Positions 43,752 through 63,220 of a stretch of DNA of 64,000 nt are shown here, one piece after another. Where the stretch lies: NCBI GenBank assembly GCA_016930775.1, contig JAFGGB010000019.1, positions 3,787-67,786 of the forward strand, written 5' to 3'. How positions within the stretch are numbered: the stretch's first letter is position 1; each line of letters starts with the position of its first letter. Made by a program: the position numbers and the translations under genes. A model generated the notes under the pieces. The model saw only the letters and a list, made by a program, of their open reading frames with translations. It was not told the DNA's origin and searched no databases. This DNA is from Deltaproteobacteria bacterium. GTDB lineage: Bacteria; Desulfobacterota; Syntrophia; Syntrophales; UBA2210.

Positions 43752-44873
43752 ATGGGAACGAATAACACTGTTTTTCTTGAAATATTGGAGTGGTTCGACG
43801 AGACGGGGCAGGAACTGGTCCATCGCCTTCCCGAGGAAGGTTCCGGCGAGATCAAATTCGGCGCCCAGCTTATCGTCAGAGGGAGCCAGGCAGCTGTCTT
43901 TTTTTACAAGGGCAAGTCTTACGAAGCCTTTGGTCCCGGGCGTCATACTCTAACTACGGCGAACATTCCCGTTTTGACGAAGATCCTTTCCGCACCCTGG
44001 GCTCTCACCAGTCCCCTGAGAGCTGAAGTCTACTTCGTGAATATGAAGGTCTTTACAAATTTAAAGTGGGGAACCCGAGACCCCGTTGCCTTTAAGGACG
44101 GAGAGTTAGGTCTCGTGCGTATCAGGGCGCATGGCGTGTTTAATATCCAGGTGGTGCAGCCGCTCCTGTTCATCAACACGCTTGTGGGAACCAGAGGATT
44201 TTACATTACGGGCGATATCGAGGAATACCTTAGGAGGGTTATCGTCTCGAGGTTCAACGATTATCTGGGAGAACACCTCGACAGCCTGGTCAATCTCCCC
44301 GGTCGGTATGATGAAATTTCCCGGGGACTCCAAGAGAGGCTCCATGACGATTTCGCTCATTATGGACTCCTGCTGGAGAATCTGTATATCGGTTCCGTTA
44401 CTCCTCCCCCCGATGTTCAACAGGCTATCGACGATAAGAGTCGTCTCGGCGTGCTCGGCGATCTGGATCGTTTTGTGAAAATGAAGGCGGCCATGGCTAT
44501 GGAGAAAGCTGCATCGTCGCAGAATAGCGAGGCGGGACAAGGCATAGGTCTGGGTTTCGGTTTCATGATGCCGGCGCTTTTCGCCGACGCGATCAAACGA
44601 GGGGAAGGGGAATCGGGGCCTGCAACCCCCCCCTGCCCGGACTGCGGCAAGACTGTTTCTCGGGATGCTCGATTCTGCCCTTTCTGCGGTCATCAGCAAC
44701 TCGTTTTCGACCAATGCTCGCAGTGCGGCAAGAATCTTCCTCCCCGCGCGCTCTTTTGCCCGAGGTGCGGTCATGCCACGGGCGAGAAACCGCCAGTGCC
44801 GGTCTGCCGACATTGCAAAAAGGACAACCTCGACGGTTCCGTTTTCTGCAACCATTGCGGCGAAAGATTGTGA
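43752..44873 (+). CDS. SPFH/band-7-like protein (YdjI / COG4260 type) with three C-terminal zinc ribbons
   Basis: The N-terminal ~290 aa (FLEILEWFDETGQELVHR...GAQLIVRGSQAAVFFYKGK...FVNMKVFTNLKWGT) matches the YdjI-type SPFH fold family. The C-terminus has CPDCG..CPFCG, CSQCG..CPRCG and CRHC..CNHCG. Confidence 0.86.
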   Translation: MGTNNTVFLEILEWFDETGQELVHRLPEEGSGEIKFGAQLIVRGSQAAVFFYKGKSYEAFGPGRHTLTTANIPVLTKILSAPWALTSPLRAEVYFVNMKVFTNLKWGTRDPVAFKDGELGLVRIRAHGVFNIQVVQPLLFINTLVGTRGFYITGDIEEYLRRVIVSRFNDYLGEHLDSLVNLPGRYDEISRGLQERLHDDFAHYGLLLENLYIGSVTPPPDVQQAIDDKSRLGVLGDLDRFVKMKAAMAMEKAASSQNSEAGQGIGLGFGFMMPALFADAIKRGEGESGPATPPCPDCGKTVSRDARFCPFCGHQQLVFDQCSQCGKNLPPRALFCPRCGHATGEKPPVPVCRHCKKDNLDGSVFCNHCGERL

Positions 44874-46097
44874 TTGATGTTCTGGGATGTCCGTTACGAA
44901 TGCCCTCAGTGCGGCGCCCCGCAGGATCTCGACGAAGCGACGCGTCTTGTCCTTTGTCATTACTGCGGTGTAAGGAGTTTTCTCTCGGCCTCCGATCTCT
45001 TTCGTTTCGCTCTGCCTCATAAAGGCGCGGTTGATGCACCCTATTACGTTCCTTATCTGCGTTTCAAGGGGTTCGTTTTCAGATGTGAAGGCCTGTCGAT
45101 ACACCATGGACTTGTGGATATCACTCGTCGCGCCGTCGATGTTCCCGTCCTTCCCGTCAGCCTCGGCTACCGTCCCCAGACGCTGGTTTTGAGGCATCTC
45201 AATGTCGGCGCGAAGGGCATAATCTTTGACAATACTCTCCATCGCGAGGATGCTTCTTCGCTGGCGGCCCGCTATACCGATAATGCCGATAAGGGGGAAG
45301 TCTTTCATCGCTCCTTCATCGGGGAATCGACGAGTCTTATTTATCTGCCGCTGTTGCGCCATGAAAGCCAATGGCTTGAAGGCGTTACGATGACTCCCCT
45401 GGAAAGTCTCGACGACGAAAGCATAGCCGGTCTCAGTCAATCGGGACCCCTGTCGCCGCTGATTTTTCTGTCGACTCTCTGCCCCTGCTGCGGCTGGAAC
45501 CTCCAGGGAGAGAAAACAAGCATCGTGCTCTTTTGTCCAAACTGTCAATCAGCCTGGGAAGCCGTTGGGGGGGGCTGGGAAAAAGTCCCGGCCGTATCGG
45601 TCGTTCACGCCGCACAAGAGGATCTCTTTCTTCCCTTCTGGAGGATAACCGCCGAAAGCAGTGACGGCCTTATCACATCACAGGCCGACCTCATCAGGAT
45701 AACGGGGCAACCGGCTCTTTACCCCGCAGAACGGGAGGGCCGACCGCTCTCGTTCATCGTTCCCGCTTTCAAGATGCGGCCGGATCTTTTCCTGAGGTTA
45801 TCGCGCGATTTTACACTAATGAAGAAGCCTTTTGATTTGTGCGAGGGGGCGCCGCGAAACGTCTTTAGTCCTGTTACGCTGAACGCCTCCGATGCCTTGG
45901 AAAGCCTGCCCGCCGTTTGCGCCACGGCCTCCGCCGTCAGGCATCTGACCTTTCCCATTCTCAAGGGACTCCGTTTCATCTGCAAGGAGCAGGCTCTCCT
46001 GTTTCTCCCCTTCAGCGAAACGGTAAACGAATTGATTCAAAGGGATGCGAGTATAGCAATTCTTCGGCAGGCAGTCCTCATGGGGAAAGCGCTCTGA
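44874..46097 (+). CDS. Soluble protein with two zinc-ribbon modules (internal duplication), function unknown
   Basis: 407 aa. It starts at TTG 44874 or ATG 44877, directly abutting the SPFH stop. CPQCG..CHYCG at the N-terminus and CPCCG..CPNCQ at ~aa 205. Each ribbon is followed by an aromatic motif (YVPYLRF / LPFWRI). No TM segment. Confidence 0.65.
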   Translation: MMFWDVRYECPQCGAPQDLDEATRLVLCHYCGVRSFLSASDLFRFALPHKGAVDAPYYVPYLRFKGFVFRCEGLSIHHGLVDITRRAVDVPVLPVSLGYRPQTLVLRHLNVGAKGIIFDNTLHREDASSLAARYTDNADKGEVFHRSFIGESTSLIYLPLLRHESQWLEGVTMTPLESLDDESIAGLSQSGPLSPLIFLSTLCPCCGWNLQGEKTSIVLFCPNCQSAWEAVGGGWEKVPAVSVVHAAQEDLFLPFWRITAESSDGLITSQADLIRITGQPALYPAEREGRPLSFIVPAFKMRPDLFLRLSRDFTLMKKPFDLCEGAPRNVFSPVTLNASDALESLPAVCATASAVRHLTFPILKGLRFICKEQALLFLPFSETVNELIQRDASIAILRQAVLMGKAL

Positions 46098-46169: not shown

Positions 46170-47522
46170 TCAGGTCAAATAAGTTCCGGACCCGAACCAG
46201 CACTGGTCGTCCAGGCGCACTGTATATCCCAGCTTCTTGTCCATCTTTTTTGTCACGGGGTTCTGAAAGTCATAAACGACCCAATCGCCTCCGCGTACCG
46301 CCGCGCCCTGCAGTTGCTTGATGTGATCGAGATGGCCGAGATTCTTTCCCGCAAGTTGCGGTTTTGCCCCGTGGGCAAGACATTTCCCCGTAAAGTCATA
46401 GGCATATATGTAGAGTTCCCCTTGGATGAAAGGGCCCTTTCTGTTCACGACCTCCTTGAGGAAGGCTTCTTTCCCATGCTTGCGGGCGAAGGAAAGGGCC
46501 TGCTCGATGAAAGCCACAACTTCTTCCTGGGAGGGATGTTCGATATCGATCAACTCTGAAACGACGGCTCTCATCTGCTCGGCCTGGGTGTTCATTGACT
46601 CCGATGATTCGGCGAGTTCCGAGGCGCTTGCCGCCATCTGTTGGGTTATTGCATCGATGTCCGTAATTGCTTTGCTTATCTGATCGACGCCCTGCGCCTG
46701 TTCCTGCGAGGCCTCATTGATCTCGTCGATGAGAGAGTTGATCTCGTTGATGCTTTCAGCGACCTTCGATATCGCCGCCGCGGTTTTCGTAACGAACTGA
46801 AGGCCGTTGTCAACCCGTTTGATGGTGTTCTCAATCAGTTCCGATGTCTCTCCCGCAGCCTTGGCCGAATTGATGGCCAATGTCCGCACCTCATCGGCGA
46901 CGACGGCGAATCCTGCGCCTGTCTCGCCGGCCCGGGCTGCCTCAACGGCGGCGTTGAGCGCAAGAAGATTGGTATTGAAAGCTATCTCATCGATTGTTTT
47001 AATAATCCTGGCGGTGTCGTTCCCCGCTTGTGAGATTTCATTCATGGATGCCGTCAAATCCTTCATTACGCCGGTTACTTCTTTGACCAGCTTGGACTCT
47101 TCGCGGGCGAGGACCGCAGCCTTGTCGGTATGGCCGGCGTTCAGCTTGATTGTGGTGCTGAGTTCTTCCAGGGCAGAGCTTGTTTCTTCCAGGGAGCCGG
47201 CGGAATTGGTTGCCCCGTTGGCTAAAGATTCGCTGGCCGCGAAAATATTGACCGCCGATGTCGCCACCTCTTCGGAATTGGCATTCAGCTTTTTTATCGC
47301 TTCAAAGACCGGTCCGAAGATCCGTTTTCCCAATACGAAAGAACTGATAAACGATAGACATGCGGCAATGCATCCGGAAACAACAAGAAGATATTTCATC
47401 GTTCCGACATTGAAACCTTCATTGCCGAGACGGGATGCTCCCCAATAGGCCACGGCTGACAGTCCGAGTATGATGGCGACTGAAACCGCCGTCAGCAGAT
47501 AATGATAACGGTAAATCTTCAT
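46170..47522 (-). CDS. Methyl-accepting chemotaxis protein with C-terminal single-Cache (sCache_2-like) domain
   Basis: 450 aa. Two TM helices separated by a ~14-aa loop. MA signalling domain ([37 protein letters not shown]). C-terminal ~120 aa: [47 protein letters not shown]...[17 protein letters not shown]...WFGSGTY. Confidence 0.9.
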
Positions 47523-47783: not shown

Positions 47784-48695
47784 ATGAACGCTGGAACCAC
47801 TGTTCCATTTATCGACATCGAGCGATGCACCGGTTGTGGGCGCTGTGTGTCCTGCTGCCCTGTGGAGACCCTGTCGCTCATTGACGGCAAGGCTGTCGTC
47901 ACGGGCATCTGTTCTCTCGGTTGCGGCCATTGTTCCGCTGCCTGCCCGGAAGATGCTATTTTCGTACCGGACCTCGAAGTCAAAAACCTGCTTTTTGAAA
48001 CGCTGCAGGTTGACCGATCCTGGATTCCGCCCGGCAAAGCCGAAGCGGGAGAACTGGTCAGGCTCATGGCCTCGCGGCGCTCCTGCCGCAGTTTTTTACC
48101 CCGGCCCGTCGGCCTTTCCACGCTTCGCGATCTTGTCCGGGCCGGAATCACGGCCCCCTCAGGCACAAACAGCCAACGCTGGGTCTTCACCGTGCTTGCC
48201 TCGCGGAAGGCCGTGGAGAGGTTGGGCGACGGCATCGCGGCATTTTTTAAGCGGCTGAACCGGTTGGCAGGTAGGACGGTTGTGCGCCGTGTACTGAAGT
48301 TACTCGGTAAAAAGGAGCTTGACAGGTATTACCGGGAACACTACGAATCCGTCCGGGAAGCCTTGCGGGACTGGGATGGGCGCCGTCGCGACAGGCTCTT
48401 CCACGGGGCGCCGGCAGTAATAATAATAGGTTCGCACCCGGGAGGAAGCTGTCCATCGGAAGATGCGCTCCTGGCCGCGCAGAATATTCTCCTTGCCGCC
48501 CACGCCATGGGGTTGGGAACATGCCTGATCGGCTTCGCTGTAAAGGCTATGAAACGGGACCGGCGCATAGCTCGGCAAATCGGCATCCTCGATTGCGAGG
48601 GCATTTATGCCGTTATAGCCTTGGGCTATACGGAGGAACGGTACGAACGGACAGCCGGACGGCGGAGTCCCGCCGTCCGGTTTGTCGAAGCTTAA
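47784..48695 (+). CDS. Nitroreductase-family protein with N-terminal 2x[4Fe-4S] ferredoxin domain
   Basis: CTGCGRCVSCCP and CGHCSAACP motifs, then a nitroreductase core (RRSCRSF, APSGTNSQRW, LAAHAMGLGTC). Confidence 0.87.
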   Translation: MNAGTTVPFIDIERCTGCGRCVSCCPVETLSLIDGKAVVTGICSLGCGHCSAACPEDAIFVPDLEVKNLLFETLQVDRSWIPPGKAEAGELVRLMASRRSCRSFLPRPVGLSTLRDLVRAGITAPSGTNSQRWVFTVLASRKAVERLGDGIAAFFKRLNRLAGRTVVRRVLKLLGKKELDRYYREHYESVREALRDWDGRRRDRLFHGAPAVIIIGSHPGGSCPSEDALLAAQNILLAAHAMGLGTCLIGFAVKAMKRDRRIARQIGILDCEGIYAVIALGYTEERYERTAGRRSPAVRFVEA

Positions 48696-48717: not shown

Positions 48718-50805
48718 TCAGAAGGGGAAGGAATTCGCTCTGATATGCGTGATTGCCGATGTTTCCGCTCCGTCATTATCTCTGGCGGTCAGCGTTACCT
48801 GGTAAGTTCCCGCGTTGGTGTACGTATGAGTTACCGATTGTCCGGCGGCTGTCGTCCCGTCGCCGAAATCCCATCGGTATTCTACGATGCTGCCATCGGG
48901 GTCGTAGCCGTTGCCGGTGAAGCGGACAATGACCGGGAGAAACACTTTTTGAAAGGCGGTCTCAATGACAACCTGCGGCCGCAGGTTTGCCACGGTTATC
49001 ACGATGCTTTCCGTTGTGGCGCCGCCGTCGTTGTCCGTTACCGTCATCTCAACAAGGTAGGATCCCTCGGTCGTGAAGGTATGGCTCACTGTCTGTCCTT
49101 CGGCAGTTGATCCGTCGCCGAACTTCCAATGATAACTTTGAACCGTTCCGTCGGGATCCGTAGCGGCGCCGCTGAAGATCACTGCAAGAGGCGCCGGGCC
49201 TTTCACCGCCGATGCGGAAATGGATGCCAGGGGGAGAGTGTTGACCGCCGCTTCGAGAATTGAAGTCCTCTTTTTCAACTCGTAAGAGACCGACGGAATT
49301 TGCATGGGCCGAAGCTTGCAGGACAAATCGGCCGAAGGACGCCACCGTCCCAATTCTATTCCTGCGATAACCGTCACATTGTCCCTGTCGGCGCCGATGA
49401 AACCGCCGTTGAAATCGCATCGGATAAAAAGGTCGAGGTTTTTCTCGGGAAGAATAGAGTATCCGGCCTTGAAGCGGCCCGCCACGTCGGCCTCATCGGC
49501 GTCGATGAAGCCTAGATTCCCCTCGACGAACAAACCCTTTTCAAAAGAGTAATCAAAGAATATGCCGTAGCTGTCCCGGACCTTCAGATATGTTTCCGTT
49601 GTCATGAGATCGGCGAGCTTGTAGCTCTGCTCTACGGCGATGACGTCCTCCGACTTGATAGGCTGCGTTGCAAAAAGTCCGATGCTTCCGCGGGGCAGAA
49701 GGTATGACAGAGACAGGCTTGCCTGGCTTAACGTCGCCGTTGAATCGAAACCGTCAAGATCGGTCGCAAGGGCCGATGCAAAGAGACCGATTTGGATGCG
49801 GTCGATACGACCCACGGCGCCGCCATCGAACTGGTATTCCTTAATGTCTCTATTGATGTTGCCTGTGAGACCGCCCTGAAGGGTAAACTGATCGTTAAGG
49901 GGTATGAAAAACTTTCCCTCAATGCCTCCCGTAAGTTCGCCGTCATCGGAACCAAGGGCTGCCGAAATGGATGCCCTGTTACTGCAATAAAGAGGAATAA
50001 CAGTCTGATACGGCGCAGCCGACGGCGCCGAAGAGGCAGTTGCCTCTTGAGGGGGTTGCTCGCGAAGAGCCATCGCTGTTTTTGCGCTGGCCGCTTCGAT
50101 GGCGGACTCTGTAGTTGCGGCAGCGGCGGCAGGTGTCGCGCCCGCCTGGCGAACAGGTTGTTCTAGGATCTTGTCCGATGCCTGTTGCGACGCCGCAGGG
50201 ACCGCCTCCGTCGATTCTGATATTCCGGCCGCGACTGGCGCCGTCAGTGAAGGTTTCTCGCCTTCACGTTCGGTCTGTTCTTTCGATTCCGCAACAGTTA
50301 TCGCGGCAGCGGACTGTTTCAGCGGCGCCGCTTCGCCGGCCTTCTCATCGATATCGCGAAGAATGGAGTTATCCTTGTAGTAATATACGCGCTCTCCCTT
50401 TTCCAAAGCGTAGATGTTGAAGACGACGCGCCTGTTGATAAAACGGCCTTCGATAGTTGCGTTTGATTCCTTAGGCTGCGATTCGCCGAATCCCTTAATT
50501 TCAATTCGCCCGCCGGCAACGCCCCGTTTCAGAAGGTGTTCTTTAACTGCATAAGCCCGATTTACGGAAAGGTTTTGGTTGTAAGCTCCTTGGCCGATCC
50601 AATCGGCGTGACCGTTGATCTCCAGATACAGCTCGGGATGCCTGACCAGGAAAGCAGTCAGACGGTCCAGTTGTTTGATGTCGTCTATGACGGCCCGTGA
50701 ATCGAATGCAAAGTTAATATCGTCCAGATTAAGGTCTTCCGAGAATGCCACGCCCTGTAAAAGAACAATAACTAAGGCGAAGCAAAGAATCCTTCGGATG
50801 GCCAT
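48718..50805 (-). CDS. Outer-membrane protein: N-terminal OmpA-like peptidoglycan-binding domain, Ala/Pro-rich linker, predicted beta-barrel, two C-terminal PKD domains
   Basis: 695 aa. AAGGAG RBS and a signal peptide. OmpA_C-like region (INFAFDSRAV...NGHADWIGQGAYNQNLSVNRAYAVKEHL). About 12 amphipathic beta-strand segments at aa ~270-525. Two PKD units (DPDG..Y.W.FGDG...). Terminal Phe. Confidence 0.86.
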   Translation of the reverse strand: MAIRRILCFALVIVLLQGVAFSEDLNLDDINFAFDSRAVIDDIKQLDRLTAFLVRHPELYLEINGHADWIGQGAYNQNLSVNRAYAVKEHLLKRGVAGGRIEIKGFGESQPKESNATIEGRFINRRVVFNIYALEKGERVYYYKDNSILRDIDEKAGEAAPLKQSAAAITVAESKEQTEREGEKPSLTAPVAAGISESTEAVPAASQQASDKILEQPVRQAGATPAAAAATTESAIEAASAKTAMALREQPPQEATASSAPSAAPYQTVIPLYCSNRASISAALGSDDGELTGGIEGKFFIPLNDQFTLQGGLTGNINRDIKEYQFDGGAVGRIDRIQIGLFASALATDLDGFDSTATLSQASLSLSYLLPRGSIGLFATQPIKSEDVIAVEQSYKLADLMTTETYLKVRDSYGIFFDYSFEKGLFVEGNLGFIDADEADVAGRFKAGYSILPEKNLDLFIRCDFNGGFIGADRDNVTVIAGIELGRWRPSADLSCKLRPMQIPSVSYELKKRTSILEAAVNTLPLASISASAVKGPAPLAVIFSGAATDPDGTVQSYHWKFGDGSTAEGQTVSHTFTTEGSYLVEMTVTDNDGGATTESIVITVANLRPQVVIETAFQKVFLPVIVRFTGNGYDPDGSIVEYRWDFGDGTTAAGQSVTHTYTNAGTYQVTLTARDNDGAETSAITHIRANSFPF

Positions 50806-51180
50806 GACATGCTCCTTTCCTCTGCAGCTAATTTGGTTTTAGAGACTACCGCCTGTGCGTCTCGTTTGAACGGAGAAGAACCAATGTCTCTACCTGGATT
50901 CATAGTAAAGGTGACGATAAAAGACAAGTAAATTAATCGGAAATTATGCAAAAGAAATTACCGGAGAGAGCGAGACCGGTATAACGAACGAGTTTCTTTC
51001 TTCCGGCCGTTTCTCAGGCAGTGCATTCTTAGGCAGGCTTAAAATATCAAATTATCAAGATAGTCATCAGGGCATAAGAACCTGTTGATTTGTTTCCCGT
51101 GCAAGAAGGCGAAAATAATTGTTTGTATGTGTCATGAAAAATATATGATCCGCAATTCAAATATCATCCGAATACCTTGA

Positions 51181-53094
51181 TCATGTTGCACTGCCGCTGT
51201 TTGTTAATGTTGCTGGATTATTTTCGGAGGTTGCCGGGGCGATAGAAGGGTTCTGTATGGTCGGCGATTTGCCTTTATTCAGTTCCGCAATCAGGCGTTT
51301 CAGGTAACTTTTGAGCCATGTGTCCAGGCTGATTAATCGCCAGAGCTGCCAGTCATTTTTATTTCCTTCATCCCAGTTCTGAAAAAAAGCTTCCAGTTCT
51401 TTTCTGCTCATCAACTGGCTGATTCCGGGTTCGTCGGACAAGATGCGCGATCTGATGTCCTCTTTCAGAATTCCATCGGCCCATATCCTGAAAGGTGTGG
51501 GAAAACCTTTTTTGTCCTTTCGCCAGGTGATGCCGTGCGGCAAGGTCCCGTTGATTGCCTGCCGGAGAAGATATTTCGACCAACCCGGTCCTACTTTCAA
51601 TTGTTCATCTATAGAGAAGGCAAACTCAATGAGGCGGTAATCGAGAAGAGGCACCCTGGATTCCAATGAAAAGGCCATGGACAGACGGTCCTCGTATCGG
51701 AGCAAGGCAGGCAAGCGCGAGAACGTCAGTTCGTGATAGAGAAAATTATCGAGATAGCCGGGGAAATGGTTCTGGATCTTCCCCGCAGAGTTTGTCAGAT
51801 ATAATTGCTTGACCTCTTGTCCAAGATCATTGACGCGGCCGATGCCGTAGTTGTCGTAAAAACCGTTCAAGGTGGTTCGGTATGATTGATAATTCCCGCT
51901 TGTCAGTGCGCTGTAGAGGCGTCTCGACGCATAAAAATCATATCCTGCGAATATCTCGTCTCCGCCTTGACCGTCCATCACCACGGTGACCTCGCGCGAG
52001 GCCGCCTCCATGACATGCCATTGGGGATAAATGCCCATGGCGAGTGTCGGCTCATCGAGGTGCCAGAGGATGTTTCCCAATTTATCAAATAATTCTAATC
52101 CATTAACTTTAACTTTAAAGGACGAGATATCGAAACGTTTGTTTATCTGATCGGCATAGGTCAGCTCGTTCCATTCATCGCCCTCCGGGAACCAGGACGT
52201 GAAACTCTTAAAGTTCTCGATGTGAGGGCGAGCGAAGGCGGACACGCAACTGGAGTCGAGGCCTCCGGACAGACAGACCCCGACGGGAACATCAGATCGA
52301 GCGTGAATTGCAACGGCGTTTTTTAAAATAGACGACAGCTCTTCTGCGAGATCGTTTTCATTTCTGTTTCTATTGTCGCGCCTCATTTCCAATGCCCGGG
52401 CCGGCAGGTCCCAGTAGGAGTCGTATGAGCGTGTTCCGTCAGCATTGAGAACCATCATATGCCCTGGCTTGAATCGCTTTATTCCTGCGATAAAAGTGTC
52501 TTCGAGACCGTCAACTATGCCTGTCTGAATATAGGTCTGCAGCGATCGAGGATTAAGCTGAAGGGATTGGTTCTTCAGGTGGCGGTACGCGGCAATTCCT
52601 TTTATCTCCGATGCGAAGACGAAGCCACTGCCTTCGGTTGAGTAATACAATGGCTTGATGCCCACGCGATCGCGACTAAGGACAATACGCCGCGCCCGTT
52701 TATCCCATATGGCGAGCGCCCACATGCCGTTGAAACGGGAGAAACAATCAAGTCCCCAGTGCTCATATGCTCTGAGCACTACCTCTGTATCGGAGTCGCT
52801 TACGAAGGTTTCCCCTTCGAATTCCAGTTCTTTTCTCAATTCAAGGTAATTGTAGACTTCGCCGTTGTAGGTAATCCAGCAATCGTTGCTTCGATTGGAC
52901 ATGGGCTGATGTCCCCGTTCGGAGAGATCGAGAACGGATAAGCGAAGGTGTCCCAAGGTTATTCCGTCATGAAAAAGAAGACCTCGATCGTCGGGACCCC
53001 GATGATCCATGATATCGAGCATGCGCTCCATCACAGAACGATCTTCGGGATCTTCAGCGCTGTTCCATCTCAAAATGCCGGCTATGCCACACAT
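51181..53094 (-). CDS. asnB: Asparagine synthase (glutamine-hydrolysing)
   Basis: 637 aa. MCGIAGIL provides the N-terminal nucleophile Cys. Synthetase-domain motif SGGLDSS. Confidence 0.92.
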   Translation of the reverse strand: MCGIAGILRWNSAEDPEDRSVMERMLDIMDHRGPDDRGLLFHDGITLGHLRLSVLDLSERGHQPMSNRSNDCWITYNGEVYNYLELRKELEFEGETFVSDSDTEVVLRAYEHWGLDCFSRFNGMWALAIWDKRARRIVLSRDRVGIKPLYYSTEGSGFVFASEIKGIAAYRHLKNQSLQLNPRSLQTYIQTGIVDGLEDTFIAGIKRFKPGHMMVLNADGTRSYDSYWDLPARALEMRRDNRNRNENDLAEELSSILKNAVAIHARSDVPVGVCLSGGLDSSCVSAFARPHIENFKSFTSWFPEGDEWNELTYADQINKRFDISSFKVKVNGLELFDKLGNILWHLDEPTLAMGIYPQWHVMEAASREVTVVMDGQGGDEIFAGYDFYASRRLYSALTSGNYQSYRTTLNGFYDNYGIGRVNDLGQEVKQLYLTNSAGKIQNHFPGYLDNFLYHELTFSRLPALLRYEDRLSMAFSLESRVPLLDYRLIEFAFSIDEQLKVGPGWSKYLLRQAINGTLPHGITWRKDKKGFPTPFRIWADGILKEDIRSRILSDEPGISQLMSRKELEAFFQNWDEGNKNDWQLWRLISLDTWLKSYLKRLIAELNKGKSPTIQNPSIAPATSENNPATLTNSGSAT

Positions 53095-53172
53095 GTGTAT
53101 TCAAAACCCTCGCAATCGTCGTTACAGTCTTTTCTCGTCCATTCCATGACCATGGTTGCCGGTGCCGTTGTT

Positions 53173-55983
53173 TTACAGGGACATATATGCGGTCGTTAAA
53201 CCACGGAATGCCCATGCTTGACCCCACCGCAGAAAGGGAAACATGTTTTTATCTTGTTTGCCCTTTGAATTGGTTATTTCAAAACCGAAACTACCGTCGC
53301 CATTGCGAAAATTATTCAGGAGCCAGGGAAGAAACCGCATGAGGATGTCTTTGGAGGCCGGGTAATCGACGGCTGTTTCACCAAGGATGTAGGCCGCTTC
53401 GGCAGCCGCGTGGATGTTGATGGGATACAGTCTGGCGGGATGGATTTTCGGTACTGTTCCCTCATGGAAGAAGTGTTGATGATAGAAAGAAAGATATCGC
53501 TCGAATAGGGTCCGGAGCTTCGTATGGTCCGGCAATGCATTCATCAAGCGGTACAGACACCTCAGTTCGGCGGCGCTGTGATAATGATCGATCTGGCCGA
53601 TATTTTGAGGAGATGGTTCGTATCCCCGAGCCCAATACGTGAGAAATCCTTGATCCTGCAAATCTCGAAAGGCAAAACGAAGTCCCTTCATTCCCAGTTC
53701 GACAAGATCATCGGATGCAGTTTCCTTGCCCAGGCGGATAAGAAATTCGGAAACACTCAGATTGGCATTGTGGACATGGTAGAAGTCTAGAGGAGTGTAG
53801 CTGAAGCACGTTTCGTTATCGCTAATTATGTCTCGGTTGAGAGACTTCGTGAAGAAGTCGGCAATGTTGAGGCAAATAGAAAGCCATTTCCCGTCGTCGG
53901 TTGACGTATGCAACTTCCAAAAGCCGTCGCCGATATGGTAGGAATTTACGGACGTGGGGACGCCCTTTGGAATCATGACGACGGATTCCCAGTCAAAGGG
54001 GTATCCCCATCCCAACCCCTCGATGTTTTTGGACGGATTTTCGAGAAGCCATGTCAGGCACTCTTCGATCGGTTTATGAAATTCTTTCGTTGCGCAATAG
54101 CGGGAAAGATCAGCGTAGGAACTGAGGAAGAGGCCCATGGCCTTTGCGTTTACCTGTGGCTCGATGCCCAGGGCTTTTCTACCGCCTTCCGGGTCGCGGC
54201 GAATGCATTCCTGAATTTCCTGGATTTCGACTTCCGTTATGACGCCCTGCAGTTTTCTTCCAAGAATATACGACGGTATGTCGTAGGGATCGTACCCTCT
54301 CCAGCCGTTCGACAGGATCCAATGGTGGAGTTTCAAAAGAGCGTCTTTTGTCATGTCTTTCAGGTCCGCCGTTGCAATGATCTTCTTTCCGGCGCGACCC
54401 AAGCTCTTGTAGGAGATTTCTGAGGATTCCGCCTCATAAGTTTGTCGAGGGAACGGCGTTTCGATATGTGCATGCAGGATTTGGCGGTAAAAGCGTTCAA
54501 GCCGGTGTATTTCGTTTTCATAGGTGAATATCTGCCGGGCAAAGTCGATTTTTTCTCTCATTTCTGTGAGTCTGGAAATGTTTCCGATGATTTCCTCGGC
54601 GGTATTGAAAATCAGGCCCACGGGATTTGTCTCGAAATAGTCGATATAGGTTGCAAGGGGCGATGTAAGTACCGGCAGCCCGGCGGCAAGGTACTCGAAG
54701 AGCTTGTTGGCGATGGTGGAATCCAGGAACCGCTTATTTCCTTTTTCGAGATTGAAGGGAATGATGCCGAAATCATACTGGGTCATGGCCCGCATAATTT
54801 CCTTGGGAGACAGGGGCTCATAGTAGTGGATTGTTCCATAACCGGCGAACAGGCCGCCGAGTTGCTGGCTGAAAGCCGTCGGGTAAATATGGATATGAAC
54901 CCCATGGTCGGCCAGGGTCGTGAAGAGATCGATGAAGTTCCGGTGGCTGTTGCCGCCGATTCCTCCCTCATAGACGATATGAATCCCCCCATCCCGGTCC
55001 GATAATTTCGGCAGATATTCGTCGGGAAGATCTCCCCGTGAAACATAGTTATACATGACCAGCGAAGGGCCTTCGATACCGTAAAGGCGTCTCGCCTCCT
55101 CCATCTGGTAGGGCGTCGTGTAGACTCGGCCCGATGCGCCGCGGTTTGCGATGCCTTCGAAGAAAGATAAATTGAGATCGCCGTTCGCCCGGAGCGAGAT
55201 GAGATCGTGGGTGTCGTGAACGACGGGCCTCTGACAGGCCAGAGCCGCTACAGTCAGAGTATCGGGTTCGTTGTGACAGTGAATGATGTCGTAGTGCCGG
55301 GAAATATCCCAGAGGTGACGATAGTCCTTGAGTTTTATGCATGCACTATAGACGTCGTCGGAGAGGCCGGGATACATCTTGCTGAGCGGCGCCTTCGTAT
55401 AGGCCAGCGTGACGGAATGTCCCCGCGCCCTCAGTGCCGTTGCCATCTTGTAATTGCGAATGCAGGGGGCTTCCTGGACGAAGAGTATCTTTAATGATTG
55501 TTCTTTCGGCCTTTCTCCCGTCGAAATGCCGGTGGAACTGAGAGTCTGAAGAGTTTTTCTTGCTTCTTCTTGATGGGGATGCAATTCGAGCGATTGACTG
55601 AGAGCCTTCGCGGCGCCTTCGGTGTCTTTCATCTCCAGGCAGACCAATGCCAGGTGATTGAAGAGTTCATGATTCGTTCCGTCGATTGACAGGGCCTTTA
55701 CAATCAGGCGCCGGGCCTCGCTCCATCGGTCTTCGCCAATCGCCAGCGTCGCAAGATTGACGAGAGCGTCAAGAAAGTTGCCGTCGCTGCAGAGGGTTTT
55801 TTCGAAAAAATAACGAGCTTCCGAAGACTTCCCCTTGGCCTGGCAGAGGACCCCGAGATTATTCAATGCTTCTGCGTTGGAAGGATCTTCTTCAAGAACC
55901 GATCGGAATGAGGCTTCTGCATCGTCCAGCTTGCCTTCAGCAAAAAATTTCTCGCCGTCTGAGATTGCCTTCATCGCATCCAT
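53173..55983 (-). CDS. Three-module protein: N-terminal TPR repeats, central glycosyltransferase-like Rossmann domain, C-terminal ~400-aa uncharacterised domain
   Basis: The ORF opens at TTG 56001; an ATG at 55983 is more likely. TPR region (AEALNNLGVLCQAKGKSSEARYFFEKTL...). GT-like region (KILFVQEAP...DIIHCHNEPD...; ANKLFEYLAAGLPVL). The C-terminal region has WRGYDPYD and GWGYPFDW motifs, possibly an alpha/alpha toroid. Confidence 0.82.
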   Translation of the reverse strand: MDAMKAISDGEKFFAEGKLDDAEASFRSVLEEDPSNAEALNNLGVLCQAKGKSSEARYFFEKTLCSDGNFLDALVNLATLAIGEDRWSEARRLIVKALSIDGTNHELFNHLALVCLEMKDTEGAAKALSQSLELHPHQEEARKTLQTLSSTGISTGERPKEQSLKILFVQEAPCIRNYKMATALRARGHSVTLAYTKAPLSKMYPGLSDDVYSACIKLKDYRHLWDISRHYDIIHCHNEPDTLTVAALACQRPVVHDTHDLISLRANGDLNLSFFEGIANRGASGRVYTTPYQMEEARRLYGIEGPSLVMYNYVSRGDLPDEYLPKLSDRDGGIHIVYEGGIGGNSHRNFIDLFTTLADHGVHIHIYPTAFSQQLGGLFAGYGTIHYYEPLSPKEIMRAMTQYDFGIIPFNLEKGNKRFLDSTIANKLFEYLAAGLPVLTSPLATYIDYFETNPVGLIFNTAEEIIGNISRLTEMREKIDFARQIFTYENEIHRLERFYRQILHAHIETPFPRQTYEAESSEISYKSLGRAGKKIIATADLKDMTKDALLKLHHWILSNGWRGYDPYDIPSYILGRKLQGVITEVEIQEIQECIRRDPEGGRKALGIEPQVNAKAMGLFLSSYADLSRYCATKEFHKPIEECLTWLLENPSKNIEGLGWGYPFDWESVVMIPKGVPTSVNSYHIGDGFWKLHTSTDDGKWLSICLNIADFFTKSLNRDIISDNETCFSYTPLDFYHVHNANLSVSEFLIRLGKETASDDLVELGMKGLRFAFRDLQDQGFLTYWARGYEPSPQNIGQIDHYHSAAELRCLYRLMNALPDHTKLRTLFERYLSFYHQHFFHEGTVPKIHPARLYPINIHAAAEAAYILGETAVDYPASKDILMRFLPWLLNNFRNGDGSFGFEITNSKGKQDKNMFPFLRWGQAWAFRGLTTAYMSL

Positions 55984-56046
55984 GAAATTCAGCCTTTGCA
56001 ATCAAGGAAATTGAGCGCTGCCCGTACTGTGATCGCTGGTGTTCAC

Positions 56047-57432: not shown

Positions 57433-58254
57433 TTAACGGCCCAGGCCTATTGTGGAAATGAAGCACTGGGAACTGTCGGAACCGGCGCCTCCCGACACGG
57501 GAACATCCGTTGCGACCCCTACCGTCGTTGTCTGAAGATACTGGGTGTAGGGGAAGAAGATATGGCGCCGCCCTTCGTGAAGGAAACCCACGTTGCCTAT
57601 GTCCGCCAGGGGATGTTCGAATTTTGAGAACTCCACCAGTTCGGCGAAGGTGTTCGTGCCGTTCCAATCGAACCAGAGGGTCGATTCGCAGTTATAGACC
57701 TGTTCGTAGGTCTTTCCTCCCGCTCCTCCCTGGTAATAGCCGTTCGGAGTAATGTCGAATTCCACCTGTTCGAAGACGTATTCAACAAATCCCACGCAGG
57801 TGAATTCTCCGGAAGCCGTGCCCTTCTGGTGGCGGAATTGAAAGTCGTAGCCCTTGCCCAGCTGTTCCCGGGCAATCACGATGAGTTGATCTTTCCTTTC
57901 CGGAGGCCAGACTGCGCCGCTGCCGTAGTCGACGGGAACCTTCGCGCCCATGTACTGGCACCCGCGATCAACATCGTCCGCGGTTATGAAATTGTTCGAC
58001 TCTTCCTCGACGACGCCGAAGCGGATGGCATGAATAATCCGTCCGTTGCCTATATAGAGACCCGCGTGCCCGGAACCCAGTTCACCGTTTGTCGCCTCGA
58101 TGACAGAGCAGGGAAGGATGAGCTGGTTTGTCTGACCGTATATTAGTCCCTCTTGGCTTGCATGGTATAGAATCGCCCCTCGTTCAAGGGCAAAAAGGGG
58201 CGGCGCGGCTATGAAGAGGATGCTTAAAAAAACTGCAATCAACAGGCGCTTCAT
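57433..58254 (-). CDS. Exported permuted papain-fold (YiiX/YaeF, C92-like) hydrolase
   Basis: Signal peptide. His region GSGHAGLYIGNGRIIHA precedes the Cys region GKGYDFQFRHQKGTASGEFTCVGFVEYVF (compare E. coli YiiX KPYDFSFSW..YCSEVVWKVY). ATGA overlap with the upstream gene. Confidence 0.72.
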   Translation of the reverse strand: MKRLLIAVFLSILFIAAPPLFALERGAILYHASQEGLIYGQTNQLILPCSVIEATNGELGSGHAGLYIGNGRIIHAIRFGVVEEESNNFITADDVDRGCQYMGAKVPVDYGSGAVWPPERKDQLIVIAREQLGKGYDFQFRHQKGTASGEFTCVGFVEYVFEQVEFDITPNGYYQGGAGGKTYEQVYNCESTLWFDWNGTNTFAELVEFSKFEHPLADIGNVGFLHEGRRHIFFPYTQYLQTTTVGVATDVPVSGGAGSDSSQCFISTIGLGR

Positions 58255-59009
58255 GGTGCAACTCCTTTCGCCGCAGCGCGGACCATGGGGGAGGCATCAG
58301 TAAGAGCTCCGGCAAGGGCGGACCGCGCCTCGCTGGTTATCGTTTTCTTTCCCTTCAGAAGTACGGCGGCGTTATATCGCACGACTGCCGATGAATCCCC
58401 CGCAAGAACCCCGGCAAGGATGTCCTGAGCTGCGGGACCGTCAAAGGCGCCGAGTGCACGGACAATCTCCGCCCGGACGAAGCGGTCGTCATCGGAGCGG
58501 AGCCGGTCTTTCAGCAGCCGAAAGGCTTCGGGAGTGCCGATCTCGCCGAGAGCCTGCGCCGCCTTGAAACGGATTGCGTCATCGGCCGATTCGATGGCAT
58601 CAGCGAGGAGTGGGAAGGATTCCTGCGCCTTCAGTCTTCCCATGCTGAAGATGAGTGTGTACAAAAGGTTGTTTCCTGAGGCAGGGTCCCGGTAGATCTC
58701 CTCGAAAGCCGCCAGGATCTCAGCCCTCGGCCGGGCAAGTTCCGATAGCGCCCGAACGGCCGCCGATCTGATGCCATCGTTTTCCTGCCGGTTTCGGGCG
58801 ATCCTCAGCAACGGTTCCGACGATGCATCCGTTCCCGCAGTTCCGAGCTCGGCAATTGCCCTGACGCGGACCGTTTCATCGGCGCCGCCGTTCAGCGCCC
58901 GTGAGGTCGATTCATCGATGCTGTTGGCCGAGACACTCAATGCCGTGGACAACAGGATGGCGATGCCGGCAGCGCCGGCTCTAACGATTGATGGCACTTT
59001 CACAGTCAT
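58251..59009 (-). CDS. Exported HEAT-repeat (PBS-lyase-type) protein
   Basis: 252 aa. Signal peptide (..LSVSANS). About five repeats of the type D..VR..A..ALG......A...L. ATGA overlaps at both ends. Confidence 0.8.
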   Translation of the reverse strand: MTVKVPSIVRAGAAGIAILLSTALSVSANSIDESTSRALNGGADETVRVRAIAELGTAGTDASSEPLLRIARNRQENDGIRSAAVRALSELARPRAEILAAFEEIYRDPASGNNLLYTLIFSMGRLKAQESFPLLADAIESADDAIRFKAAQALGEIGTPEAFRLLKDRLRSDDDRFVRAEIVRALGAFDGPAAQDILAGVLAGDSSAVVRYNAAVLLKGKKTITSEARSALAGALTDASPMVRAAAKGVAP

Positions 59010-62140: not shown

Positions 62141-63220
62141 TTATTCAGGGAACAGCGGTTCGACGAGGTCGGCAATCCTGCCCGACCGGACGGCCTCAAG
62201 GAAGGCGTCGCGAAGCCGCCCCCCTTCTTCGATAACGATGGACCACAATCGGCGCCGTTCGTCGTCGCGGTCCCGAAACAGGGTAAAATCCTGCCGGTCC
62301 GGCACTCGCTTCAGAGGAAGTCTTTCAAGGAATATCCTTGAGGGCGCCGCCAGCAGGACTTGTTCCATATGCTCGCGCCGTGGTTTCCTGGCTGGGATAT
62401 TCTTGTCGAACCATCCGGGCGTTATAATGTGGGTGTAATGAGGGAACAAAACGATCGTGCCCTTCGGGGGAGAGAAGGGGAGGTCCAGATGATAATCGAT
62501 TATTCCGCCGTCGCGGTAGGTTCCTCGGGGAGCTCCATTAATGGAGGCGACGCCCGACATTATCAGAGGTATGGATCCCGAGGCCAACAGAACATCCATA
62601 AAATTCTCTTCCGTCAGAGATGAGGAAAGTGAGGGGAAGTCGGTCATGTTGAAAAAGGGCGGCAGGTCCCGGGGATCGTGGAAGAGAGCCCGATCGAAAA
62701 GAATCCTCAGGCACTTCCGGTTGATCCGGTTCATCAACGCTGCCAGAACAAGGCTTCCCGTCTGAACGATGCGATTGTCGAAGGCGGCTATTCCGCGGCA
62801 TCGCGCAGCTATGATGCTGGTCCGGAAGATAGGATGCCGGAGAATCTCCCCGGGTGCGTTTTTTTCGATGTAACCTCTCTGAATGTTAAAACTTGCGGCG
62901 GTGACTTCTTGAGGGAAGGGATGTCGATCGTATCGCTGGCCGATATAGAGTTCCCTGAATCGCCGAAGAGCCTTTCCCGGTTGCTGTTGCGCCATGGCGG
63001 CGAAGCGCCAGGCGCCGATGGAAGAGCCTATCAGAAAAAGAGGCGCGCGCCGGCCGGCGAACCACTCCGTCGCCAGCGATTCGTCAAGAGCGCTGAGCGC
63101 CAGTGCCTTCGGTCCGCCCGCCGCACCTGCCACAATAGATACGGTCGACGGTTCGAGGCCCTCCTGCCTGATAGTTCGGTAAGCCTTGGGGCCGGCGAGA
63201 AATCGTATGTTCTCAAACAT
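62141..63220 (-). CDS. Patatin-like phospholipase
   Basis: 359 aa. Oxyanion GAAGGPKA, nucleophile elbow GSSIG, and Asp motif YRDGGIIDY. Confidence 0.86.
   Translation of the reverse strand: MFENIRFLAGPKAYRTIRQEGLEPSTVSIVAGAAGGPKALALSALDESLATEWFAGRRAPLFLIGSSIGAWRFAAMAQQQPGKALRRFRELYIGQRYDRHPFPQEVTAASFNIQRGYIEKNAPGEILRHPIFRTSIIAARCRGIAAFDNRIVQTGSLVLAALMNRINRKCLRILFDRALFHDPRDLPPFFNMTDFPSLSSSLTEENFMDVLLASGSIPLIMSGVASINGAPRGTYRDGGIIDYHLDLPFSPPKGTIVLFPHYTHIITPGWFDKNIPARKPRREHMEQVLLAAPSRIFLERLPLKRVPDRQDFTLFRDRDDERRRLWSIVIEEGGRLRDAFLEAVRSGRIADLVEPLFPE

Follow-up and report, generated by a model that had tools for sequence, protein, structure and literature searches.

The protein encoded by ORF 48718..50805 (-) of the window analyzed here (a 64,000-nucleotide stretch of contig JAFGGB010000019.1 from the Deltaproteobacteria assembly GCA_016930775.1) is probably an outer-membrane surface protein that acts like a type Ve, or inverse, autotransporter while being built on an unrelated and undescribed barrel family. 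Its domains run from a Sec signal peptide through an OmpA_C-like domain, a linker, a beta-barrel and a conserved ~30-aa tail to two PKD domains. An initial annotation, made from the sequence alone, had read this order as that of a type Ve-like adhesin. The domain order and the barrel stand, while sequence kinship to IAT_beta, the barrel family of intimin and invasin, does not. A search for homologues, as that annotation had suggested, revealed that the inverse-autotransporter domain order is conserved across a diverse family. The initial annotation was also aware of no description of such a variant, and we found none of the OmpA-barrel-PKD order in the literature searched; an NCBI entry 99% identical to the protein is named only 'PKD domain-containing protein'.

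Gene and domain organization

The 695-aa reading frame begins at an ATG codon, and a putative ribosome-binding site read from the sequence, GGAAAGGAG (50812..50820, (-)), ends 6 nt upstream of the start codon. The N-terminus, MAIRRILCFALVIVLLQGVAFS followed by EDL, displays the n-, h- and c-regions of a Sec signal and aligns with the N-termini of homologues. We assign aa 1-22 (50740..50805, (-)) as a signal peptide of the Sec/SPase I pattern with no lipobox; its cleavage site, between MAIRRILCFALVIVLLQGVAFS and ED, was inferred from the A-x-S pattern by reading rather than by a predictor.

The OmpA_C-like peptidoglycan-binding domain that follows (aa ~25-135; 50401..50733, (-)) is matched by Pfam PF00691 (OmpA) over aa 41-125 with 56.2 bits against a cut-off of 27.2 (E=4.7e-15). 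Among solved structures, the C-terminal domain of OprF (5u1h) is closest (7.5e-19), with 5wtp also matched, and the residues of the peptidoglycan-binding motif (D68, G71, N76, L79, S80, R83, A84 and V87) are invariant in an alignment of 13 relatives. NCBIfam OmpA-type models matched aa ~13-137 only, all below their cut-offs. A Pfam and NCBIfam search of the protein for LysM gave no match; the periplasmic domain is OmpA_C-like instead, a different domain that is the functional analogue of LysM. Next comes a low-complexity periplasmic linker recognized by its composition (aa 150-265; 50011..50358, (-)), 116 aa long with 28% Ala, 12% Glu, 10% Ser and 9% Pro. The residues A/P/E/S/T/Q make up 73% of it versus 41% of the whole protein, and neither its sequence nor its length is kept among relatives.

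At the C-terminal end, PKD domain 1 (aa ~526-607; 48985..49230, (-)) is matched by the Pfam models PKD_4, PKD and K319L-like_PKD, and PKD domain 2 (aa ~612-690; 48736..48972, (-)) by PKD_4, with its best stretch at 619-684, and by PKD at 627-686. The PKD_4 match reaches E=1.2e-42 over 2 stretches. In Foldseek, PKD1 superposes on the ColG PKD domain 4aqo with a TM-score of 0.91 normalized to the target and an rmsd of 1.3 A. Both copies carry the W-[KD]-FGDG motif, and the protein ends in ...RANSFPF. The signal peptide, OmpA_C-like domain, Ala/Pro/Glu-rich linker and two PKD domains listed in the initial annotation are therefore all present, as judged from Pfam and composition.

The barrel domain

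The middle region (aa 277-488, ~210 aa; 49342..49977, (-)) is predicted with high confidence to be an outer-membrane beta-barrel, on the evidence of AlphaFold2 (AF2), Foldseek, amphipathic strands and covariation. AF2 of aa 262-612 with a 50-sequence alignment gave a pLDDT of 93.4 and a pTM of 0.75; single-sequence AF2 of the whole protein gave a pLDDT of 34 and was not usable. A Foldseek search of the barrel model against the PDB returned outer-membrane barrels with a probability of 1.0, and in 116 family members the transmembrane strands are amphipathic, with a hydrophobic side and a polar side. An exhaustive search with the barrel region identified 133 cluster representatives at E<=1e-3, 82 of them at E<=1e-10, and a conserved family of this size means that the strand pattern is not due to chance. 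Word-index searches returned 1 match (P0001) with the barrel alone and 13 with a 53-sequence profile, too few for coevolution analysis. Searched against Pfam, NCBIfam and PDB sequences, the barrel matched no known family.

DSSP divides the AF2 model into 14 strand segments, two of which we read as kinked continuations, leaving 12. The low-rmsd Foldseek matches (intimin, invasin, NanC, FapF and EstA) are all 12-stranded. Target-normalized TM-scores were 0.60 for NanC, the best, 0.56 for intimin (4e1s and 5g26) and invasin (4e1t) at an rmsd of 6.5-6.8 A, and 0.49 for FapF; NanC, FapF and EstA together span rmsd values of 6.5-7.8 A, with EstA at 7.7-7.8 A. The 14-stranded OmpG and larger porins fit more poorly, with rmsd values of 14-17 A. 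The modeled barrel thus most likely has 12 transmembrane strands. This agrees with the ~12 strands counted in the initial annotation, whose eight example strands all correspond to AF2 strands (beta2, 3, 5, 6, 8, 9, 11 and 12), and its proposal of a 12-strand membrane barrel is likewise supported as the best fit (AF2 pLDDT 93, Foldseek and amphipathic strands).

In the model the barrel has standard topology. Connections on the N-terminal side comprise 2-4 residues and those on the other side up to 6-11 residues plus a strand 7/8 hairpin, and insertions within the family, located by reading homologue sequences by eye, fall in loops 3 and 4. Loop 4 is a long polar beta-hairpin that extends strands 7 and 8 (aa ~385-411; 49573..49653, (-)), delineated by DSSP and covariation; DSSP strands 386-396 and 399-409 continue beta7 and beta8. 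Beyond its membrane part, the barrel domain has no extended beta structure other than this hairpin, which is not membrane-amphipathic and lies on the face opposite the barrel termini.

A conserved tail after the barrel

A variable turn (aa 489-497) and a conserved linker (aa 498-507, L-R-P-M-Q-I-P-S-V-S), together at 49285..49341 (-) and defined by AF2 and conservation, lead from the barrel into a tail beta-strand (aa 508-517, YELKKRTSIL; 49255..49284, (-)) defined by DSSP and conservation. The model shows the turn and linker as ordered coil, with a mean pLDDT of 79-97 per 10-residue block over aa 482-511, and the blocks of the tail strand average 89 and 97. The tail motif, P-x3-P-x3-Y-E-x3-R, is carried by P500 (104/110 sequences), P504 (99/109), Y508 (102/109), E509 (88/109) and R513 (96/104). 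No stretch of the domain is better conserved, with 2.4-3.95 bits/column over most of aa 498-513 (mean 2.05). The tail is retained in members without PKD domains, which end directly after it, and it is therefore part of the barrel domain rather than of the PKD domains. Only ~8 residues separate it from PKD1, and aa 525-560, which the initial annotation had offered as the pore-threading segment, already form the first strands of PKD1; the candidate segment is instead aa ~489-517. In intimin, a helical turn is followed by an 11-residue linker (434-444) and a short strand that carries the conserved Y448 and is paired with loops 4 and 5 (PMC13078405). By analogy, the predicted geometry of the tail parallels that of intimin.

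In a covariation analysis by MI-APC with a reduced alphabet, most hairpins between neighboring strands were recovered, among them the strand 7/8 extension (b7x-b8x). Tail residues covary more with the loop-4 hairpin than with lipid-facing residues (p=0.013), a weak signal that is confounded by the two-clade phylogeny of the family. The strongest pair of the whole domain joins linker residue S505 to the lumen-facing T314. Many of the top pairs link non-adjacent strands, a sign of the two-clade phylogenetic confound, and we did not count covariation as contact evidence. Mean-field DCA on 116 sequences was discarded since artefacts of conserved columns dominated its output.

Distribution and architecture of the family

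Genome matches of the barrel family come from Desulfobacterales, Nitrospirota and Acidobacteriota. Members typically consist of OmpA, barrel and tail in this order, followed by 0-12 Ig-like domains. Among 94 full-barrel representatives, the part after the barrel is at least 50 aa long in 76 and longer than 300 aa in 49, with a maximum of 1185 aa, and 12 carry no C-terminal domains at all. Of the 17 homologues with a C-terminal extension that were scanned, 16 have a PKD-type Ig-like domain directly after the tail, and the arrays of homologues are composed of PKD, K319L-like PKD and Big_9 domains. A tail followed by Ig-like domains is the pattern of a fibrillar adhesin. In three representatives (P0099, P0107 and P0109), large Ig-like arrays precede the barrel, and the tail forms the C-terminus. 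Standard topology would place these arrays in the periplasm, so that Ig arrays attached to this barrel are not necessarily extracellular. Given this arrangement, one barrel family may serve both passenger orientations (P0107 type), mirroring the split between type Va and type Ve.

We identified no conserved neighbor gene across the 17 related loci fetched. The gene stands alone, which fits the expectation for an autotransporter-type system. At two loci (L006 and L007), passenger-less homologues adjoin a ZnuA/ABC/ABC-3 metal-uptake operon. The neighbors at L007 are znuABC, LpxR and glutamine cyclotransferase; no Ig-rich substrate gene is among them, and the idea that passenger-less members work as two-partner systems was rejected for these loci.

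Proposed mechanism and alternatives

We hypothesize that, after Sec export, the OmpA_C-like domain would remain in the periplasm and bind peptidoglycan, joined by the disordered 116-aa tether to the 12-stranded barrel, which the BAM machinery would presumably insert into the outer membrane. The chain would exit strand 12 on the periplasmic side and make the short variable turn of aa 489-497, and aa 498-507 may then cross the lumen of the barrel in an extended conformation punctuated by prolines. The strand of aa 508-517, with its invariant Tyr, would pair with what is probably its partner, the extracellular strand 7/8 hairpin. This would place the two PKD domains on the cell surface, where they would probably act as an adhesin or ligand-binding module, while the OmpA-like domain would couple the surface load to the cell wall. 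The strand count, lumen threading, tail partner and surface exposure are deduced from the model and from conservation, not seen directly.

An arrangement in which nothing is exported seems to us rather unlikely, yet it is the strongest competitor. Here the barrel would be an outer-membrane anchor plugged or capped by the tail, with both the OmpA-like and the PKD domains in the periplasm, and the protein would staple the outer membrane to peptidoglycan or serve as a scaffold for periplasmic partners. The existence of PKD-less members as complete genes, the full peptidoglycan-binding motif of the OmpA-like domain and the N-terminal Ig arrays of three representatives, periplasmic by standard topology, all suit such a tether. 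However, the tail is an ordered, highly conserved strand, the one element of the barrel domain with which it could pair is on the extracellular side, and PKD1 begins just past the tail. Further, we estimate that a 1185-aa array amounts to ~12 Ig domains and tens of nm, more than the width of the periplasm. That PKD domains usually occur in secreted and surface proteins also argues against a periplasmic location.

A peptidoglycan-anchored porin or channel, in which an open 12-stranded pore like NanC/KdgM or the open form of OprF would have the PKD domains as an accessory substrate-binding module, is very unlikely. NanC does give the highest target-normalized TM-score, and the passenger-less homologues next to the ZnuA/ABC/ABC-3 operon speak for it, but that adjacency occurs in one syntenic pair of loci only and the sequence is unrelated to any porin family. 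Moreover, conservation is highest in a peptide after the barrel that has no counterpart in KdgM-type porins, and the invariant polar lumen-facing residues Q310, E323, Q325, D327, Q338 and Q361 are easier to reconcile with a packed than with an open lumen.

Sequence comparison did not place the barrel in the intimin/invasin family. IAT_beta (PF11924) did not match the protein, and the barrels of 53 members had no Pfam match at E<=10, whereas YeeJ, the positive control for the IAT_beta search, scores 9.5e-114. In hhalign the barrel reached a probability of 0.2% against YeeJ and 0.1% against a 36-sequence IAT_beta alignment, and the Foldseek fit to intimin and invasin was no better than that to NanC. 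The relation to IAT_beta raised in the initial annotation is not supported by these searches, and the resemblance to intimin and invasin is one of architecture only. Least probable of all is a true IAT_beta member that has diverged beyond sequence detection, since the shared domain order and inferred strand number, the similar linker metrics and the conserved Tyr-containing strand after the linker, as in intimin (PMC13078405), are outweighed by the hhalign result with reasonably deep profiles on both sides, the missing Pfam matches and an intimin fit not above that of unrelated 12-stranded barrels.

Returning to surface display by the barrel and tail, it is possible, and we put this forward tentatively, that the family represents an independently evolved form of inverse autotransport: a type V-like subclass by which Desulfobacterales, Nitrospirota and Acidobacteriota would export PKD/Ig arrays, with an IAT_beta-unrelated barrel, its own pore-threading tail and an OmpA-like peptidoglycan anchor. 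Export of the PKD domains, if real, would mean that inverse autotransport is not a peculiarity of the intimin/invasin lineage but has been reached with another barrel family in environmental phyla. A comparison of both systems could then show which type Ve features matter, such as linker length, the extracellular beta-sheet with its conserved Tyr and peptidoglycan anchoring. Proteins of sulfate reducers and Acidobacteria, groups for which adhesion and aggregation matter ecologically, could receive more precise names than their present annotation as 'PKD domain-containing' or 'OmpA family'. No anchor has been recognized in about half of the predicted fibrillar adhesins (PMC8286594), and this barrel could be the anchor for some of them. 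The barrel and tail might also serve as a surface-display scaffold.

Comparison with known systems

OmpA/OprF-type proteins likewise combine an outer-membrane barrel and an OmpA_C-like domain with the D...NxxLSxxRAxxV motif in one polypeptide. However, their order is an 8-stranded barrel followed by OmpA_C, whereas here the order is reversed and the barrel has ~210 aa and ~12 strands; the conserved tail and C-terminal PKD domains occur only in the present protein, in which OmpA_membrane found no match. The monomeric outer-membrane proteins NanC/KdgM, FapF and EstA (type Va) have barrels of similar size and fold according to Foldseek but are unrelated in sequence, and none of them combines an N-terminal OmpA domain, a conserved C-terminal tail and Ig repeats. 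Classical (type Va) autotransporters have a C-terminal barrel (PF03797) and an N-terminal passenger. PF03797 matched neither the protein nor the 53 members, and its absence, along with a barrel that is N-terminal to the Ig domains, speaks against a type Va identity.

Peptidoglycan-binding modules have precedents on type V adhesins, namely LysM in YeeJ and intimin, OmpA or SLH domains on trimeric autotransporters and the OmpA-domain helper TpgA (bioRxiv 10.64898/2026.01.22.700529; PMC5595812). Trimeric autotransporters (with OmpA in Streptobacillus and SLH in Negativicutes) and the AtaA-TpgA pair also couple an adhesin to peptidoglycan via an OmpA-type domain, for which shear resistance or an aid to secretion has been proposed (bioRxiv 10.64898/2026.01.22.700529; PMC12523085). 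They differ in that their barrels have 4 strands per chain, their passenger is N-terminal and the peptidoglycan module follows the barrel or is a separate protein.

The inverse autotransporters come closest. Membership of barrel and linker in IAT_beta is their diagnostic criterion (Heinz et al. 2016, PMC4943183), and their barrel is recognized by that model, unlike the present one, for which threading and export are proposals. Their periplasmic domain is in many members a LysM or a coiled coil rather than OmpA_C-like, their passengers are Big_1/Big_2 domains with a lectin domain rather than PKD or K319L-like PKD, and they occur mainly in Proteobacteria, Chlamydiae and Cyanobacteria as opposed to Desulfobacterales, Nitrospirota and Acidobacteriota. 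Both systems nevertheless share a signal peptide, a periplasmic peptidoglycan-binding domain and a 12-stranded barrel N-terminal to the passenger. In both, a turn and linker of ~20 residues lead from strand 12 to a short strand bearing a conserved Tyr; an Ig-fold domain comes right after this strand, and the number of Ig-like repeats beyond it varies. In both, too, the gene stands alone, and each family includes barrel-only members, as described for IAT_beta by Heinz et al. 2016 (PMC4943183).

Domain composition of the window protein

The gene at 48718-50805 (minus strand) is an ORF with an ATG start that encodes 695 aa, and a ribosome-binding site, GGAAAGGAG, can be read on the same strand with its 3' end 6 nt ahead of the start codon. 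The protein begins with MAIRRILCFALVIVLLQGVAFS followed by ED, which looks like a Sec/SPase I signal. The domains that the initial annotation had proposed around the middle region were recovered: Pfam placed an OmpA domain (PF00691) at aa 41-125 (E = 4.7e-15) and two PKD domains at the C-terminus (PKD_4, 1.2e-42; PKD, 3.3e-34), and the Ala/Pro/Glu-rich linker, put at ~110 aa, covers 116 aa (aa 150-265) that are 73% A/P/E/S/T/Q. Among PDB sequences, the relatives of the OmpA domain include the OprF C-terminal domain (5u1h, 7.5e-19) and the PKD region matches collagenase ColH (4.1e-24); NCBIfam models matched aa ~13-137 alone, every score being under the cut-off. For aa ~270-520, Pfam, NCBIfam and PDB sequences gave no significant match. 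In the OmpA-like domain the canonical motif is preserved (D68, G71, N76, L79, S80, R83, A84 and V87 are invariant), and judged from its sequence the domain is probably a working peptidoglycan binder. A Deltaproteobacteria MAG protein (MBN1827854.1) that is 99% identical is named merely "PKD domain-containing protein".

A fairly widespread family of barrels

The middle region belongs to a fairly widespread and uncharacterised family of barrels with a layout like that of inverse autotransporters. A word-index search returned one relative, P0001, a 449-aa protein with the OmpA domain and middle region and without PKD. When 1.84 billion cluster representatives were searched exhaustively with a profile, 133 proteins scored E<=1e-3, 82 of them E<=1e-10; genome loci of homologues lie in Desulfamplus magnetovallimortis and other Desulfobacterales, in Nitrospirota and in Acidobacteriota (Holophagae and others, such as Acanthopleuribacter pedis and Sulfidibacter corallicola). 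We ran Pfam scans on 18 homologues, 10 plus a further 8 picked as missed by the OmpA HMM. In the first 10, an OmpA domain precedes the unannotated ~230-aa region in 8 and PKD, K319L-like PKD or Big_9 directly follows it in all. The other set yielded no OmpA domain (0/8); in 6 of these a PKD-type domain begins a few residues past the barrel end, P0048 has just a weak Sde0182_C match after the barrel, and P0107 has Ig-like domains ahead of it. Among the 94 representatives whose middle region is complete, an OmpA-like domain is detectable ahead of the barrel in 51, at least 50 aa lie past the barrel in 76, more than 300 aa in 49 (maximum 1185 aa), and 15 aa or fewer in 12. Among the commonest endings is Pro-Phe (5/94), which closes the window protein after its last PKD domain (...RANSFPF, 48718-48738) as well as its close relatives P0004, P0009 and P0048, with ...PFIP in P0010; it could be a terminal motif.

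Predicted fold of the barrel

An AF2 model of aa 262-612, built from a 50-sequence alignment, has a mean pLDDT of 93.4 and a pTM of 0.75. In Foldseek searches against the PDB, its C-terminal part goes to PKD domains and the remainder to outer-membrane barrels, with TM scores (normalised to the target) of 0.60 for NanC (rmsd 6.5 A), 0.56 for intimin (4e1s/5g26, 6.8 A) and invasin (4e1t, 6.5 A), 0.49 for FapF (6.6 A) and 0.22-0.23 for EstA (7.7-7.8 A), all with 12 strands; 14-stranded OmpG scores 0.42-0.51 (15-16 A) and the larger, 16-stranded porins 0.21-0.29 (14-18 A). On this evidence the middle region forms an outer-membrane barrel. Within aa 277-486, DSSP assigns 14 strand segments, with a gap of one residue between 373-384 and 386-396 and of two between 399-409 and 412-420; in each of these two pairs the inner half is membrane-amphipathic and the outer half polar, and 386-396 and 399-409 show hairpin-type covariation. 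For these reasons we infer 12 transmembrane strands, of which strands 7 and 8 are each read as ~10 residues longer and forming a protruding hairpin (loop 4), and the 12-strand barrel of the initial annotation is upheld as a reading of those 14 segments. Topology looks standard in the model, with strand connections of 2-4 residues on the N-terminal side and longer ones on the other, and by our reading of homologue sequences insertions are located in loops 3 and 4.

A conserved tail and its possible path

Strand 12 ends at ...VTVIAGIELGRW488, after which aa 489-497 are variable and lead into L-R-P-M-Q-I-P-S-V-S-Y-E-L-K-K-R-T-S-I-L. The model has aa 487-507 as coil, in a stretch that is ordered (block pLDDT 79-97), and a 10-residue strand at aa 508-517. 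This tail is the best-conserved part of the barrel domain in 116 family members (P500 104/110, P504 99/109, Y508 102/109, E509 88/109, R513 96/104), most of its columns holding 2.4-3.95 bits where the domain averages 2.05. Because proteins that end just after the tail retain it (P0001, P0007, P0013, P0015 and P0019, and likewise complete genes in loci L001 and L007), and because the PKD1 sandwich is complete from aa 526 onward, the tail strand is part of the barrel domain and not of PKD1. The same boundary displaces the pore-threading segment first placed at aa 525-560; the candidate is aa 489-517.

In the model the tail could find extended beta structure to pair with only in the strand 7/8 hairpin, which, the number of strands being even, lies on the side of the barrel away from its termini. 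Pairing with this hairpin would require residues 489-507 to cross the membrane via the lumen. The tail covaries more strongly with the hairpin than it does with lipid-facing positions (p = 0.013), and linker S505 and lumen-facing T314 form the strongest pair of the whole domain; both results come from a matrix confounded by a two-clade phylogeny and are weak support, not proof. We lean towards an inverse-autotransporter-like mechanism, in which aa 489-507 would cross the membrane inside the barrel lumen and aa 508-517 would pair with the loop-4 hairpin. The main rival, a barrel tethered to peptidoglycan with periplasmic PKD domains, is rather unlikely but draws on three homologues, P0107 (1036 aa), P0109 (928 aa) and P0099 (490 aa), which carry barrel and tail at the extreme C-terminus and, in the N-terminal 230-800 aa, Ig-like arrays of HYDIN/ASH/DUF1573 type. 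Under standard topology these arrays would be periplasmic, so Ig arrays on this barrel are not automatically external; their order, the reverse of that in the window protein, resembles a classical autotransporter.

Gene context

Directly upstream on the same strand, across a 375-bp gap, lie genes (51181-56001) for a 637-aa AsnB-like glutamine amidotransferase and a 942-aa protein that combines a TPR region with a GT4 glycosyltransferase domain and has no annotation in its C-terminal half (~450 aa), a pair that may form a surface-glycan modification module. The window gene is convergent with a ferredoxin-nitroreductase gene, and none of its neighbours is conserved beside homologues in 17 related loci; a stand-alone gene fits a self-contained, autotransporter-type system. 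At 48655-48680, 38 nt downstream of the window-gene stop and within the last nitroreductase codons, lies a GC-rich inverted repeat whose 11-bp arms match perfectly around a 4-nt loop, CCGGACGGCGG-GACT-CCGCCGTCCGG. It has no T-run after it and may terminate transcription in both directions or stabilise mRNA as a hairpin.

Homologues lacking a passenger (OmpA, barrel and tail only) occur in two syntenic loci, L006 (7914-13159) and L007 (8001-13277), each followed by a metal-uptake operon (ZnuA, ABC ATPase, ABC-3 permease) and then LpxR, with no Ig-rich partner gene beside them. This adjacency may reflect a channel role of barrel-only members, or coincidence; that the window protein itself is an open porin seems improbable.

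Elsewhere in the window, 46170-47522 (minus strand) encodes a methyl-accepting chemotaxis protein of unusual layout, with two N-terminal hydrophobic helices, a short MCPsignal domain (aa 143-293) and a C-terminal Cache-like domain (aa ~267-448), the usual layout having a periplasmic Cache sensor at the N-terminus. At 43752-46097 (plus strand), the gene for an SPFH/Band-7 protein bearing three zinc ribbons at its C-terminus runs stop to start into that for a 407-aa protein whose sole match is a weak one to a zinc ribbon; the two look like a coupled gene pair. At 57433-61465 (minus strand) lies an apparent operon for a LonB/LonC-like AAA protease of 819 aa, a 252-aa protein with HEAT repeats and a 273-aa papain-fold protein like NlpC/P60 or C92; a patatin-like phospholipase gene (62141-63220) is nearby.

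Comparison with known type V adhesins

The initial annotation had suggested that the protein may be a type Ve-like adhesin and had asked whether its barrel is related to IAT_beta; this is partly supported, in that the architecture and the 12-strand barrel stand and homology to IAT_beta does not. Pfam gave no match to any family for the window barrel and 52 relatives even at E<=10 (the positive control YeeJ scores 9.5e-114 on IAT_beta), hhalign of the family profile gave probabilities of 0.2% against YeeJ and 0.1% against a 36-sequence non-redundant IAT_beta alignment, and against all PDB sequences the profile matched through its PKD part only. Cryptic true IAT membership is thus the least probable reading. 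Heinz et al. 2016 defined inverse autotransporters by a sequence criterion (PMC4943183), and with no IAT_beta relation in Pfam or hhalign the window protein falls outside that definition.

A literature search did not find this architecture described. In intimin, a helical turn and an 11-residue linker (434-444) lead to a short strand, which carries a conserved Y448, joins loops 4 and 5 in a sheet and is indispensable for stability and secretion (PMC13078405); the tail metrics of the window protein match this turn, linker and Tyr strand. Precedents also exist for type V adhesins with periplasmic peptidoglycan-binding modules, namely LysM in intimin and YeeJ, OmpA or SLH in some trimeric autotransporters, and the helper TpgA with OmpA (bioRxiv 10.64898/2026.01.22.700529; PMC5595812; PMC12523085).
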